In this document: piece by piece, positions 31,101 to 34,100 of the stretch
How positions within the stretch are numbered: position 1 is the stretch's first letter
Layout of the letters: every line of letters begins with the position of its first letter
From: Escherichia coli
GTDB lineage: Bacteria > Pseudomonadota > Gammaproteobacteria > Enterobacterales > Enterobacteriaceae
Reading direction: 5' to 3' (one strand)
DNA: 64,000 nt
Assembly (NCBI RefSeq): GCF_003334305.1
Contig: NZ_QOWS01000006.1
Made by a program: the position numbers

Positions 31101-34100
31101 GGGCATCAGCGCGCACGTTCACCCTCACCCTAACCCTCTCCCTCAAGGGAGAGGGGACCGATCGAGCACAAATTTTGAGAGATATCTTCTTCTGTCTTGT
31201 AACAGAAGAACAGAAAATCGGGCTTTTGCGCCTGAATATTGCGGAGAAAAAGCATGGCCGGGAATGACCGCGAGCCAATTGGACGCAAAGGGAAACCGAC
31301 GCGTCCGGTCAAACAAAAGGTAAGCCGTCGTCGTTACGAAGATGACGATGATTACGACGATTATGATGACTATGAGGATGAAGAACCGATGCCGCGCAAA
31401 GGTAAGGGCAAAGGCAAAGGGCGTAAGCCTCGTGGCAAACGCGGCTGGCTATGGCTGCTGTTAAAACTGGCTATCGTTTTTGCCGTGCTGATCGCCATTT
31501 ACGGCGTTTATCTCGATCAAAAAATTCGTAGCCGTATTGATGGCAAGGTCTGGCAACTGCCTGCGGCAGTTTATGGCCGAATGGTCAATCTTGAGCCAGA
31601 TATGACCATCAGCAAGAACGAGATGGTGAAGCTGCTGGAGGCGACTCAGTATCGTCAGGTGTCGAAAATGACCCGTCCTGGCGAATTTACCGTGCAGGCC
31701 AACAGCATTGAGATGATCCGCCGTCCGTTTGATTTCCCGGACAGTAAAGAAGGGCAGGTGCGTGCGCGTCTGACCTTTGATGGTGATCATCTGGCGACGA
31801 TCGTCAATATGGAGAACAACCGTCAGTTCGGTTTCTTCCGTCTTGATCCGCGCCTGATCACCATGATCTCTTCGCCAAACGGTGAGCAGCGTCTGTTTGT
31901 GCCGCGCAGTGGTTTCCCTGATTTGCTGGTGGATACTTTGCTGGCGACAGAAGACCGCCATTTCTACGAGCATGATGGGATCAGCCTCTACTCAATTGGG
32001 CGTGCGGTGCTGGCAAACCTGACCGCAGGTCGCACGGTGCAGGGTGCGAGTACGCTGACGCAACAGCTGGTGAAAAACCTGTTCCTCTCCAGCGAGCGCT
32101 CTTACTGGCGTAAAGCGAACGAAGCCTACATGGCGCTGATCATGGACGCGCGTTACAGCAAAGACCGTATTCTTGAGCTGTATATGAACGAGGTGTATCT
32201 CGGTCAGAGCGGCGACAACGAAATCCGCGGCTTCCCGCTGGCAAGCTTGTATTACTTTGGTCGCCCGGTAGAAGAGCTAAGCCTCGACCAGCAGGCGCTG
32301 TTAGTCGGTATGGTGAAAGGGGCGTCCATCTACAACCCGTGGCGTAACCCGAAACTGGCGCTGGAGCGACGTAATCTGGTGCTGCGTCTGCTGCAACAGC
32401 AACAGATTATTGATCAAGAACTCTATGACATGTTGAGTGCACGTCCGCTGGGGGTTCAGCCGCGCGGTGGGGTAATCTCTCCACAGCCAGCCTTTATGCA
32501 ACTGGTGCGTCAGGAGCTGCAGGCAAAACTGGGCGATAAGGTAAAAGATCTCTCCGGCGTGAAGATCTTCACTACCTTTGACTCGGTGGCCCAGGACGCG
32601 GCAGAAAAAGCCGCCGTGGAAGGCATTCCGGCACTGAAGAAACAGCGTAAGTTGAGCGATCTTGAAACTGCGATTGTGGTCGTCGACCGCTTTAGTGGTG
32701 AAGTTCGTGCGATGGTCGGAGGTTCTGAGCCGCAGTTTGCGGGCTACAACCGTGCGATGCAGGCGCGTCGTTCGATTGGTTCCCTTGCAAAACCAGCGAC
32801 TTATCTGACGGCTTTAAGCCAGCCGAAAATCTATCGCCTGAACACGTGGATTGCCGATGCGCCAATCGCGCTGCGTCAGCCGAATGGCCAGGTCTGGTCA
32901 CCGCAGAACGATGACCGTCGTTATAGCGAAAGCGGCAGAGTGATGCTGGTGGATGCGTTGACCCGTTCGATGAACGTGCCGACGGTAAATCTGGGGATGG
33001 CGCTGGGGCTGCCTGCAGTTACGGATACCTGGATCAAACTGGGCGTACCGAAAGATCAGCTGCATCCGGTTCCGGCGATGCTGCTGGGGGCGTTGAACTT
33101 AACGCCAATCGAAGTGGCGCAGGCGTTCCAGACCATCGCCAGCGGTGGTAACCGTGCACCGCTTTCTGCACTGCGTTCGGTAATCGCGGAAGATGGCAAG
33201 GTGCTGTATCAGAGCTTCCCGCAGGCAGAACGCGCTGTTCCGGCGCAGGCGGCGTATCTGACACTATGGACCATGCAGCAGGTGGTACAACGTGGTACGG
33301 GTCGTCAGCTTGGGGCGAAATACCCGAACCTGCATCTGGCAGGGAAAACAGGGACTACCAACAATAACGTAGATACCTGGTTTGCAGGCATTGACGGCAG
33401 CACGGTGACCATCACCTGGGTAGGCCGTGATAACAACCAGCCGACCAAACTGTATGGAGCCAGCGGGGCAATGTCGATTTATCAGCGTTATCTGGCTAAC
33501 CAGACGCCAACGCCGCTGAATCTTGTTCCGCCAGAAGATATTGCAGATATGGGCGTGGACTACGACGGCAACTTTGTTTGCAGCGGTGGCATGCGTGTCT
33601 TGCCGGTCTGGACCAGCGATCCGCAATCGCTGTGCCAGCAGAGCGAGATGCAGCAGCAGCCGTCAGGCAATCCGTTTGATCAGTCTTCTCAGCCGCAGCA
33701 ACAGCCGCAACAGCAACCTGCTCAGCAAGAGCAGAAAGACAGCGACGGTGTAGCCGGTTGGATCAAGGATATGTTTGGTAGTAATTAACATCTAAGCGTG
33801 AAATACCGGATGGCGAGTTGCCATCCGGTAAAATAACATCCCATCTAAGATATTAACCCTTTCTTTTCATCTGGTTGTTTATTAACCCTTCAGGAACGCT
33901 CAGATTGCGTACCGCTTGCGAACCCGCCAGCGTTTCGAATATTATCTTATCTTTATAATAATCATTCTCGTTTACGTTATCATTCACTTTACATCAGAGA
34001 TATACCAATGGCGCGTTCCAAAACTGCTCAGCCAAAACACTCACTGCGTAAAATCGCAGTTGTAGTAGCCACAGCGGTTAGCGGCATGTCTGTTTATGCA

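Follow-up and report, generated by a model that had tools for sequence, protein, structure and literature searches.

What do the two low-complexity ends of a very well-known enzyme contribute, and does their length vary between strains? This question is raised by mrcB (ponB), the gene of PBP1b, in a stretch of 64,000 nucleotides from Escherichia coli (contig NZ_QOWS01000006.1 of assembly GCF_003334305.1; the whole stretch is called the window below). An earlier note on this DNA had pointed to a charge-segregated N-terminus, to a Gln/Pro-rich C-terminus and to a possible slippage of the DNA coding for the latter. The flagged feature consists of known traits of the protein: the disorder of both PBP1b tails is already known, and a role of the N-terminal tail was published in 2026. 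The window carries mrcB, and we consider it probable that the two low-complexity ends of the protein are intrinsically disordered tails with slippage-variable tracts, lying on opposite sides of the inner membrane, where the N-terminal tail has isoform-specific roles and the C-terminal tail would be a leash for a functional terminal helix. This C-terminal amphipathic motif, omitted from all standard constructs, is the part with some discovery value, as a lead and not as a result.

The C-terminal tail and its terminal motif

The periplasmic C-terminal tail comprises amino acids (aa) 795-844 and is Gln/Pro-rich, with 15 Q and 5 P in the 34 residues of aa 796-829. The highest Q/P content of any 34-residue stretch is 21, compared with a maximum of 16 among 2,000 shuffles of PBP1b. 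The same was observed for the N-terminal runs, where 13 D/E in 17 aa and 16 K/R/G in 20 aa compare with shuffle maxima of 10 and 14, respectively. All these runs exceed every shuffle maximum and are therefore not due to chance. The earlier note had the protein end within the Q/P run. The run is indeed present (aa 800-829), but 15 further, conserved residues follow up to the C-terminus.

In E. coli these residues include a W-phi-x-x-phi-F helix (phi, hydrophobic; x, any residue), GWIKDMFG, with W836, I837, M840 and F841 on one face. Among the E. coli alleles read, the motif was invariant save for D839E, and its codons had accumulated synonymous differences. It is conserved in Enterobacter, Citrobacter and Photorhabdus and is followed by three residues, G-S/G-N, in enterics. 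A more distant set was drawn from clusters at 50% identity and comprised 143 near-full-length representatives with 34-64% identity to the query; a strict form of the motif, W-[hydrophobic]-x-x-[hydrophobic]-[F/L/W/I/M], was searched within their last 25 residues. It was found in 39 of the 143, compared with an average of 0.8 and at most 5 in shuffled tails (200 shuffles), and in 0.67% of internal 25-residue segments. A broader hydrophobic form was present in 61/143 (7.2 expected). As a control, the strict W form was found in none of 25 class A PBPs without a UB2H domain.

Counts at each position were made on the 38 sequences carrying the strict motif within 6 residues of the C-terminus. W (38/38) is followed by F/L/W/I/Y at +1, R/K (19/38) at +2, R/D at +3, L/I/V (30/38) at +4, F (33/38) at +5 and then by G, D or the stop, and the consensus of the last residues reads [S/N/G]-W-[F/L/W]-[R/K/Q]-[R/D]-L-F-[G/D]. 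The motif appears as QWLKKLFSW in Vibrio, DWVKGWMN in Pseudomonas, QWWQKILGQ in Shewanella, GWFKGLFD in Alcanivorax, GWFEGLFQ in Marinobacter, DWLKDVFK in Desulfobacter, KWLKRLFF in a Nitrospirota metagenome-assembled genome (MAG) and GFLQRLFGG in a deltaproteobacterial MAG, while variants with F for W occur in Acidobacteria (GFFGRLKDIFR, NFLQKIFGG). These comparisons show purifying selection on the terminal motif across lineages whose linkers cannot be aligned.

Measured from the last conserved Cys to the motif, the linker has a median length of 13 residues (range 3-49), and the 40-49 residues of Enterobacteriaceae form its long extreme. Photorhabdus has a 17-residue linker that is not Q/P-rich, and its tail still ends in GWLREMFGQ. 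Since the enterobacterial linkers stand at the long extreme with the motif retained, the Q/P tract is shown to be a lineage-specific linker expansion in Enterobacteriaceae, and the conserved element is the terminal helix. In Enterobacter, Citrobacter and close relatives, a Q/P tract of variable length is flanked by two conserved islands, GNPF(D/N)QS and the terminal motif. The first of these is seen in the window as GNPFDQSS (aa 805-812, 33666-33689), inside the Q/P linker. It is kept in Escherichia, Citrobacter, Enterobacter and close relatives, is absent from Photorhabdus and beyond, and may be a second short linear motif.

We propose that the flexible Gln/Pro linker would tether the conserved amphipathic helix GWIKDMFG, which would be the functional element, a lipid- or partner-binding peptide, with the Q/P tract only setting its reach. 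More specifically, we tentatively suggest that the last ~10 residues could be an undescribed functional element present across diderm phyla, a MinD-like helix on a variable periplasmic leash. Just as tentatively, its binding to a membrane leaflet or to a conserved partner in the periplasm could position or regulate PBP1b in vivo. A literature search, with thin coverage of subscription journals, returned no paper on the PBP1b C-terminal tail or motif, which is weak evidence that the motif has apparently never been studied. All PDB constructs span residues 53/58-804, leaving both tails out, and 58-804 has been described as a functional truncation, catalytically active and responsive to LpoB in vitro (bioRxiv 10.1101/2024.12.13.628440). 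Neither tail is thus needed for catalysis or LpoB activation in vitro, and any role must therefore concern localisation, regulation or stability in vivo. If the motif is functional, current in vitro systems would lack a regulatory or targeting element of an enzyme that is a major antibiotic target. As 58-804 is used in every structural and most biochemical studies, the element would also be missing from the experiments on how PBP1b is regulated.

The tethered helix could act in two ways, by binding a lipid leaflet as in MinD, or by being captured by a TPR/PDZ partner or a second protomer. Binding to a leaflet would be favoured by the close match to the membrane-targeting sequence of MinD, KGFLKRLFGG (PMC5471200). 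Some tails of the PBP1b family are near-identical to it (GFLQRLFGG, GLFERLFGG), and the hydrophobic moment of the PBP1b motif (0.38-0.47) is close to that of the MinD sequence (0.45). The C-terminal helix of FtsA, GSWIKRLNSWLRKEF, has a similar pattern. In all three proteins, the element sits at the extreme C-terminus after a flexible linker, the PBP1b motif ending 3 residues before the last one, with hydrophobic residues at i, i+1, i+4 and i+5, basic or polar residues between and often a G or GG at the end. A Pfam FtsA_C match at aa 800-843 (E = 0.006) was not taken as homology, since it is too weak and its score is too strongly biased by low complexity. The helices of MinD and FtsA work from the cytoplasmic side of the inner membrane, whereas the PBP1b tail is periplasmic, past the transpeptidase domain of a type II protein. 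Because those helices act in the cytoplasm, we did not file the PBP1b motif in the MinD/FtsA family; the resemblance is one of pattern, and lipid binding is putative.

Several observations weigh against a functional helix at the end of the leash, in addition to the activity of the 58-804 truncation. The motif is not universal: in Pasteurellaceae, Acinetobacter and Bdellovibrio it is degenerate or missing, and even its broad form is found in only 57 of 101 aligned sequences. We modelled E. coli PBP1b with AlphaFold2 (AF2) from a 106-sequence alignment (mean predicted local distance difference test score, pLDDT, 87.6). The short helix predicted at aa 833-841 reached a pLDDT of ~56, compared with 62-68 in a Vibrio homologue whose linker has 6 residues, and no confident cis docking site was found for the terminal helix in either protein. 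The hydrophobic moment of the helix ranks 85th among the 834 segments of the protein, which is unremarkable. Simple membrane binding in particular is made doubtful by the linkers of 3-10 residues in many homologues, which, as judged by fold reasoning only, seem too short to reach either membrane from the end of the transpeptidase module.

These short linkers would fit a binding site close to the enzyme better than a remote membrane. They speak for a periplasmic partner that captures the helix with a peptide-binding domain, such as CpoB (TPR domain) or Prc or DegP/DegQ (PDZ domain), or for capture by a second PBP1b protomer. The helix would then be a short linear motif on a leash and not a lipid binder, an alternative that we regard as possible but doubtful. 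Ligands of TPR and PDZ domains often sit at a free C-terminus, and the motif lies 0-2 residues from it in most homologues. The AF2 monomer, in which the helix is not docked in cis, would fit an element awaiting an external partner, and endings of the ...ELF, ...LVF or ...TLF type are shared by E. coli PBP1a and epsilonproteobacterial class A PBPs. However, three residues follow the motif in enterics and 4-6 in some homologues, which is unusual for strict carboxylate recognition, and the likeness to the MinD sequence, down to the FGG ending, points to lipid binding.

It is unlikely that the tails are neutral low-complexity filler, i.e. slippage-prone DNA that expanded where tolerated, the last 15 residues included. 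Such filler would agree with the activity and LpoB regulation of 58-804 in vitro, with a tail length that varies within and between species, with a Q/P expansion confined to Enterobacteriaceae and with the absence of a fold in the AF2 tails. It accounts poorly for the published role of the alpha-specific N-terminal peptide in septal recruitment, and for a W-phi-x-x-phi-F motif kept at ~50 times the shuffle expectation in homologues of at most 50% identity with unalignable linkers. Within E. coli, moreover, the tract varies between motifs that are themselves invariant, and the D-to-E change is the only replacement among the synonymous differences of the terminal motif.

Other class A PBPs, among them those of loci L075, L081, L085 and L091, also have hydrophobic ends with a Phe, which follow a low-complexity stretch. 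In alphaproteobacteria, they end in GLFERLFGG, DLITGLFGG or FIEKLFGLGD, which is nearly the MinD sequence, and in epsilonproteobacteria in ...LVF or ...TLF. PBP1a of E. coli K-12 (mrcA, L095 20122-20424) ends in ...IIDNGEAQELF. Class A PBPs of diderms thus seem commonly to end in a hydrophobic peptide that contains Phe and sits on a disordered leash.

Similar leashes are known from other envelope and division proteins of E. coli. The P/Q domain of ZipA, the periplasmic linker of FtsN, TolA and TonB are Gln/Pro-rich leashes leading from a membrane-anchored body to a terminal binding element. These linkers are longer than that of PBP1b (~60-100 residues or more), and the likeness is in composition and predicted disorder. 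PBP5 (DacA) and PBP6 end in an amphipathic helix on the outer face of the inner membrane, which is their only anchor. Unlike them, PBP1b already has an N-terminal transmembrane helix, and a second anchor would serve a different purpose. The closest precedent in position is PBP1 of Bacillus subtilis, whose intrinsically disordered C-terminus (121 aa, located after an FN3 domain) is dispensable for catalysis (Brunet et al. 2022, PMC9732909). This region reportedly works through its disorder, scrambled sequences being functional, and was proposed to steer the enzyme to wall gaps (PMC9732909). Both are class A PBPs with an extracytoplasmic disordered tail behind the transpeptidase module. That of E. 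coli is shorter (50 aa) and has a conserved terminal motif, which implies sequence-specific rather than disorder-based recognition. The Q/P tract, poorly conserved in length and sequence, fits a function of the disorder type, whereas the strongly conserved terminal 15 residues do not.

Length variation among strains

A 271-bp query covering the C-terminal tail matched 5,425 of 5,426 complete E. coli genomes, and the matched genomes were used as strain panel. Tail length, counted in aa from GNPFDQ to the C-terminus, was not invariant: the tract has at least six lengths among the 5,425 genomes, or seven counting a Shigella protein. The window carries the common form of 40 aa. The other lengths are 37 aa (-9 bp; ET220, EC32), 42 aa (+6 bp; strain PAR), 43 aa (+9 bp; NS-NP030 and three others), 44 aa (+12 bp; JNEC-KY172), 45 aa (+15 bp; elppa5) and 36 aa, equivalent to -12 bp, in a Shigella flexneri protein of the same 90% cluster.

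The short allele was counted in two ways. By identity to the C-tail query, 757 genomes fell at 90-95% and 8 at 80-90% (~765/5,425 in total), and sampled members of these bands carried a 9-bp deletion of exactly one 9-mer unit, which turns 11 residues of the tail into QPQQQQPA and shortens the protein to 841 aa. With a query specific for the junction of this allele, the cut lay between rank 726 and rank 906. The two estimates agree on a frequency of ~14% of genomes. Insertion alleles amounted to 7/5,425: a synthetic three-copy query gave 4 exact natural matches, and other insertions were found in 3 more genomes. Each C-tail insertion has arisen as a perfect second copy, in tandem, of a unit lying within 33690-33719.

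The N-terminal tail was examined with a 227-bp query, and deletions were observed in the last four of 60 evenly spaced matches. The acidic tract had lost either one GAT (-3 bp, DDDD to DDD; EC581/SW4848, LR14) or, more rarely, one TACGACGAT (-9 bp, one Tyr-Asp-Asp unit; CFS3292). The Lys-Gly tract had lost one GGCAAA (-6 bp, one KG unit; MS20645, LR14), the losses of GAT and GGCAAA being combined in one strain, LR14. With allele-specific 63-nt queries, for which an identity of at least 99% corresponds to an exact match, 180 genomes matched the allele lacking GAT and 143 that lacking a KG unit.

As a control, matches to the central part of mrcB (31481-33559, 2,079 bp) spanned exactly 2,079 bp in 60/60 evenly sampled genomes, down to 94.9% identity. 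The nine length alleles read all differ by multiples of 3 nt, in frame, and by gain or loss of a tandem unit. With in-frame unit changes in the tracts and no indels in the control, indels are therefore concentrated in the three low-complexity tracts, and the slippage-type variation, suggested in the earlier note for the C-terminal tract, was recovered in both tails.

The repeats themselves are short. Tandem Repeats Finder (TRF) detected arrays in the acidic tract (31334-31381, period 9/18, scores 44-54) and in the Lys-Gly tract (31396-31420, period 6, score 36), and none in the C-terminal tail at a minimum score of 30. The core of the C-terminal repeat, located from strain alignments, is an imperfect tandem 9-mer at 33698-33715. 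We therefore dropped 'microsatellite' as a literal term for the C-terminal tract; 'microsatellite-like', the wording of the earlier note, fits the N-terminal tail better and the C-terminal tail only loosely.

Short imperfect tandem repeats, with units of 3, 6, 9, 12 or 15 nt, would gain or lose units by replication slippage. Stable in-frame length alleles and no on/off switching would result, because the units are multiples of three and the linkers tolerate small changes. The data support ordinary in-frame slippage in tolerant linkers, of low frequency and narrow range, and phase variation was rejected as all alleles are in frame. Against this stands the fact that slippage is deduced from allele structures and that, for the -9 bp allele, recurrent mutation and recombination are inseparable. 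We considered ATCC 11303 (short) and BL21 (long) as a case of recent clonal slippage and rejected it, the two being 80 mrcB substitutions apart. They are not clonal at mrcB, and the pair is therefore uninformative on recurrence. That mrcB would be a contingency (phase- or antigen-variable) locus, with slippage switching or tuning PBP1b at high rate within populations, is highly improbable: several distinct length alleles at three tracts and the tandem nature of these tracts would agree with it, but no frameshift or off state was seen, the repeat units, as all nine alleles, being multiples of 3 nt, the repeats are short with 2-4 imperfect copies (TRF scores of 36-54 in the N-terminal tail and no array in the C-terminal one), insertion alleles are confined to the seven genomes mentioned, the -9 bp allele behaves as a stable one on diverged haplotypes (ATCC 11303, which carries it, being the 80 substitutions away from BL21), and PBP1b, a periplasmic and inner membrane protein, is not surface exposed. 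Read as the ordinary slippage that we favour, these polymorphisms neatly illustrate how slippage is tolerated only in the flexible linkers of a protein. Their main practical use is as a warning in allele typing and annotation.

Traces of recombination were also observed at this locus. The urinary or clinical strains EC32, TUM13881 and Ec-91, which carry the short allele, have a wholly different intergenic sequence directly past the mrcB stop (33789-33830). ET220 has the short allele, yet window-type sequence downstream of mrcB. This difference indicates a recombination breakpoint or a segment replacement at the end of the gene. The gene itself is mosaic-looking. In the window, its first 227 bp are 100% identical to O157:H7 strains, but over its central 2,079 bp the 100% match is with an O43 strain, and O157:H7 strains reach only 97.4%. 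On sequence identity, this mosaicism suggests intragenic recombination among lineages.

The N-terminal tail and the two isoforms

The cytoplasmic N-terminal tail (aa 1-64) has a basic/acidic/basic pattern, with net charges of +8 (aa 1-27), -13 (aa 28-44) and +10 (aa 45-64). The acidic run followed by a basic Gly-Lys run, which the earlier note had placed before the transmembrane helix (aa 63-95), is thus present. AF2 gave a pLDDT below 50 for aa 1-61. A 14-residue stretch of the alpha N-terminal peptide is conserved in Enterobacter and Citrobacter, and Photorhabdus has a similar peptide, MSGEDRQPIGRKGK. The number of KG units varies between genera, with mostly three in Enterobacter compared with four in the window.

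E. coli makes two PBP1b isoforms, alpha from Met1 and gamma from Met46 (PMC13423804, Nat Microbiol 2026). Enrichment and activity at the division site were observed for alpha only, and recruitment of alpha requires the N-terminal peptide (R6 and the conserved P8-R11, i.e. P8, I9, G10 and R11), probably via FtsA; the acidic tract is not discussed in that study (PMC13423804). In the window protein, Met46 lies between the acidic and the basic run, a point that the earlier note had not made. The acidic run therefore falls wholly within the extension specific to alpha, and both isoforms contain the Lys-Gly run.

The Glu-Asp codons ending the acidic tract spell a GAGG, 11 nt before the ATG of Met46, and a GAGGA is also found ahead of the internal ATG in Citrobacter and Photorhabdus. 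As judged by this spacing and conservation, the acidic tract probably also supplies the gamma ribosome-binding site, with a putative Shine-Dalgarno (SD) role for GAGG. In the scheme that we propose for this tail, the basic block of aa 1-27 would recruit alpha to the division site, probably through FtsA as published. The acidic block would be a spacer whose last codons serve as SD-like element for the Met46 start of gamma. The Lys-Gly/Arg block would flank the membrane anchor in both isoforms, where we infer that it is the positive cytoplasmic flank of a type II anchor, in line with the positive-inside rule.

The gene and its surroundings

The coordinates of the gene and its features are listed in Table 1. 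That the gene codes for PBP1b, as called in the earlier note, was confirmed at several levels. Its product exceeded the cut-offs of both the NCBIfam equivalog NF007061 ('bifunctional glycosyl transferase/transpeptidase'; 1735 bits, cut-off 1120) and TIGR02071 (PBP_1b; 1248 bits, cut-off 717.75), and is near-identical to PDB chains 3VMA, 3FWL and 5FGZ/5HLB, over aa 53-804 for 3VMA/5HLB. It is the same protein as PBP1b of E. coli K-12 (3VMA, 5HLB, 7LQ6), with 844 aa, the same domains, the Met46 start and the C776-C794 disulfide, and only two substitutions are visible with respect to the crystallised sequence, D591E and V782I.

Pfam assigned PBP1_TM to aa 1-79, UB2H to aa 113-197 (PF14814, E = 4e-25), Transgly to aa 209-379 and Transpeptidase to aa 473-714, and the UB2H chain of PDB 6FZK matched aa 107-200. 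The UB2H domain, between the membrane anchor and the glycosyltransferase domain, separates PBP1b from PBP1a and PBP1c. Of the SxxK/SxN/KTG motifs, S510, K513, N574 and K698 are invariant in the 106-sequence alignment and S572, T699 and G700 nearly so. All the features that define the PBP1b family are found in the window gene: equivalog score, anchor, GT51 and transpeptidase domains, and UB2H. The folded periplasmic body ends at Cys794; this residue and Cys776 are nearly invariant in the alignment, and C776-C794 has been named as a structural disulfide (bioRxiv 10.1101/2024.12.13.628440).

Table 1. Coordinates of mrcB and of associated features in the window
Feature	Position	Strand	Basis
mrcB (ponB) coding sequence, PBP1b alpha isoform, 844 aa plus stop	31254..33788	+	Open reading frame (ORF), NCBIfam, PDB, Pfam
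SD-like GGAG, 7 nt upstream of the alpha ATG (31254)	31243..31246	+	Read from sequence
Basic N-terminal peptide, aa 1-27, alpha isoform only	31254..31334	+	Charge; AF2 pLDDT <50
Acidic Asp/Glu/Tyr tract, aa 28-44	31335..31385	+	Imperfect period-9/18 tandem repeats (TRF)
Basic Lys/Gly/Arg juxtamembrane segment, aa 45-64	31386..31445	+	TRF period 6, (GGCAAA)n at 31396-31420
Gamma internal start: putative SD-like GAGG (31374-31377), 11 nt, ATG of Met46 (31389-31391)	31374..31391	+	Sequence; published start site
Single transmembrane helix, aa 63-95	31440..31538	+	AF2 helix with high pLDDT; Pfam PBP1_TM
Folded periplasmic body, aa 96-794 (UB2H, glycosyltransferase, transpeptidase)	31539..33635	+	Pfam; AF2 pLDDT mostly >90
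Gln/Pro-rich disordered linker, aa 795-829	33636..33740	+	Composition; AF2 pLDDT <50 for aa 812-832
Variable core CAGCCGCAGCAACAGCCGCAACAGCAACCT, with tandem 9-mers GCAACAGCC (33698-33706) and GCAACAGCA (33707-33715)	33690..33719	+	Strain alleles
Conserved C-terminal motif, aa 830-844, with predicted amphipathic helix at aa 833-841	33741..33785	+	Conservation; AF2
Perfect 11-bp inverted repeat, TACCGGATGGC / GCCATCCGGTA, 5-nt loop, 16 nt past the mrcB stop	33804..33830	+	

Five codons before the alpha start, a TTG in the same frame (31239-31253) lets mechanical ORF callers lengthen PBP1b. We rejected the TTG at 31239 as the true start in view of the GGAG preceding the ATG and of the conserved N-terminus MAGNDREP. 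The database proteins of several relatives begin at the upstream position, and start-site mis-annotation is likely. Three of the 5,425 mrcB matches are on records labelled plasmid, which may be mis-assigned replicons, and the one genome of 5,426 without a match may reflect a deletion or an assembly gap.

Upstream of mrcB, the neighbouring ORF codes for an 824-aa product which we take to be hrpB. The downstream neighbour codes for a 747-aa FhuA, and fhuA is also annotated 3' of mrcB in the ATCC 11303 record. In a BL21 assembly (L094 2949-5271), an IS2 insertion interrupts fhuA, and the annotation lists two pseudogene fragments. The inverted repeat directly past mrcB was not called by a terminator scan because it has no T-run; it is a possible candidate for a transcript-end hairpin. 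In the intergenic region upstream of mrcB (31077-31148), we observed a G+C-rich imperfect palindrome, CCCTGTGGGAGAGGGCCGGGGTGAGGG / CCCTCACCCTAACCCTCTCCCTCAAGG, with 27-nt arms that are 81% complementary and a perfect 10-nt hairpin nested at 31134-31155. This palindrome presumably resembles a dispersed family of E. coli intergenic repeats (Box C-like).

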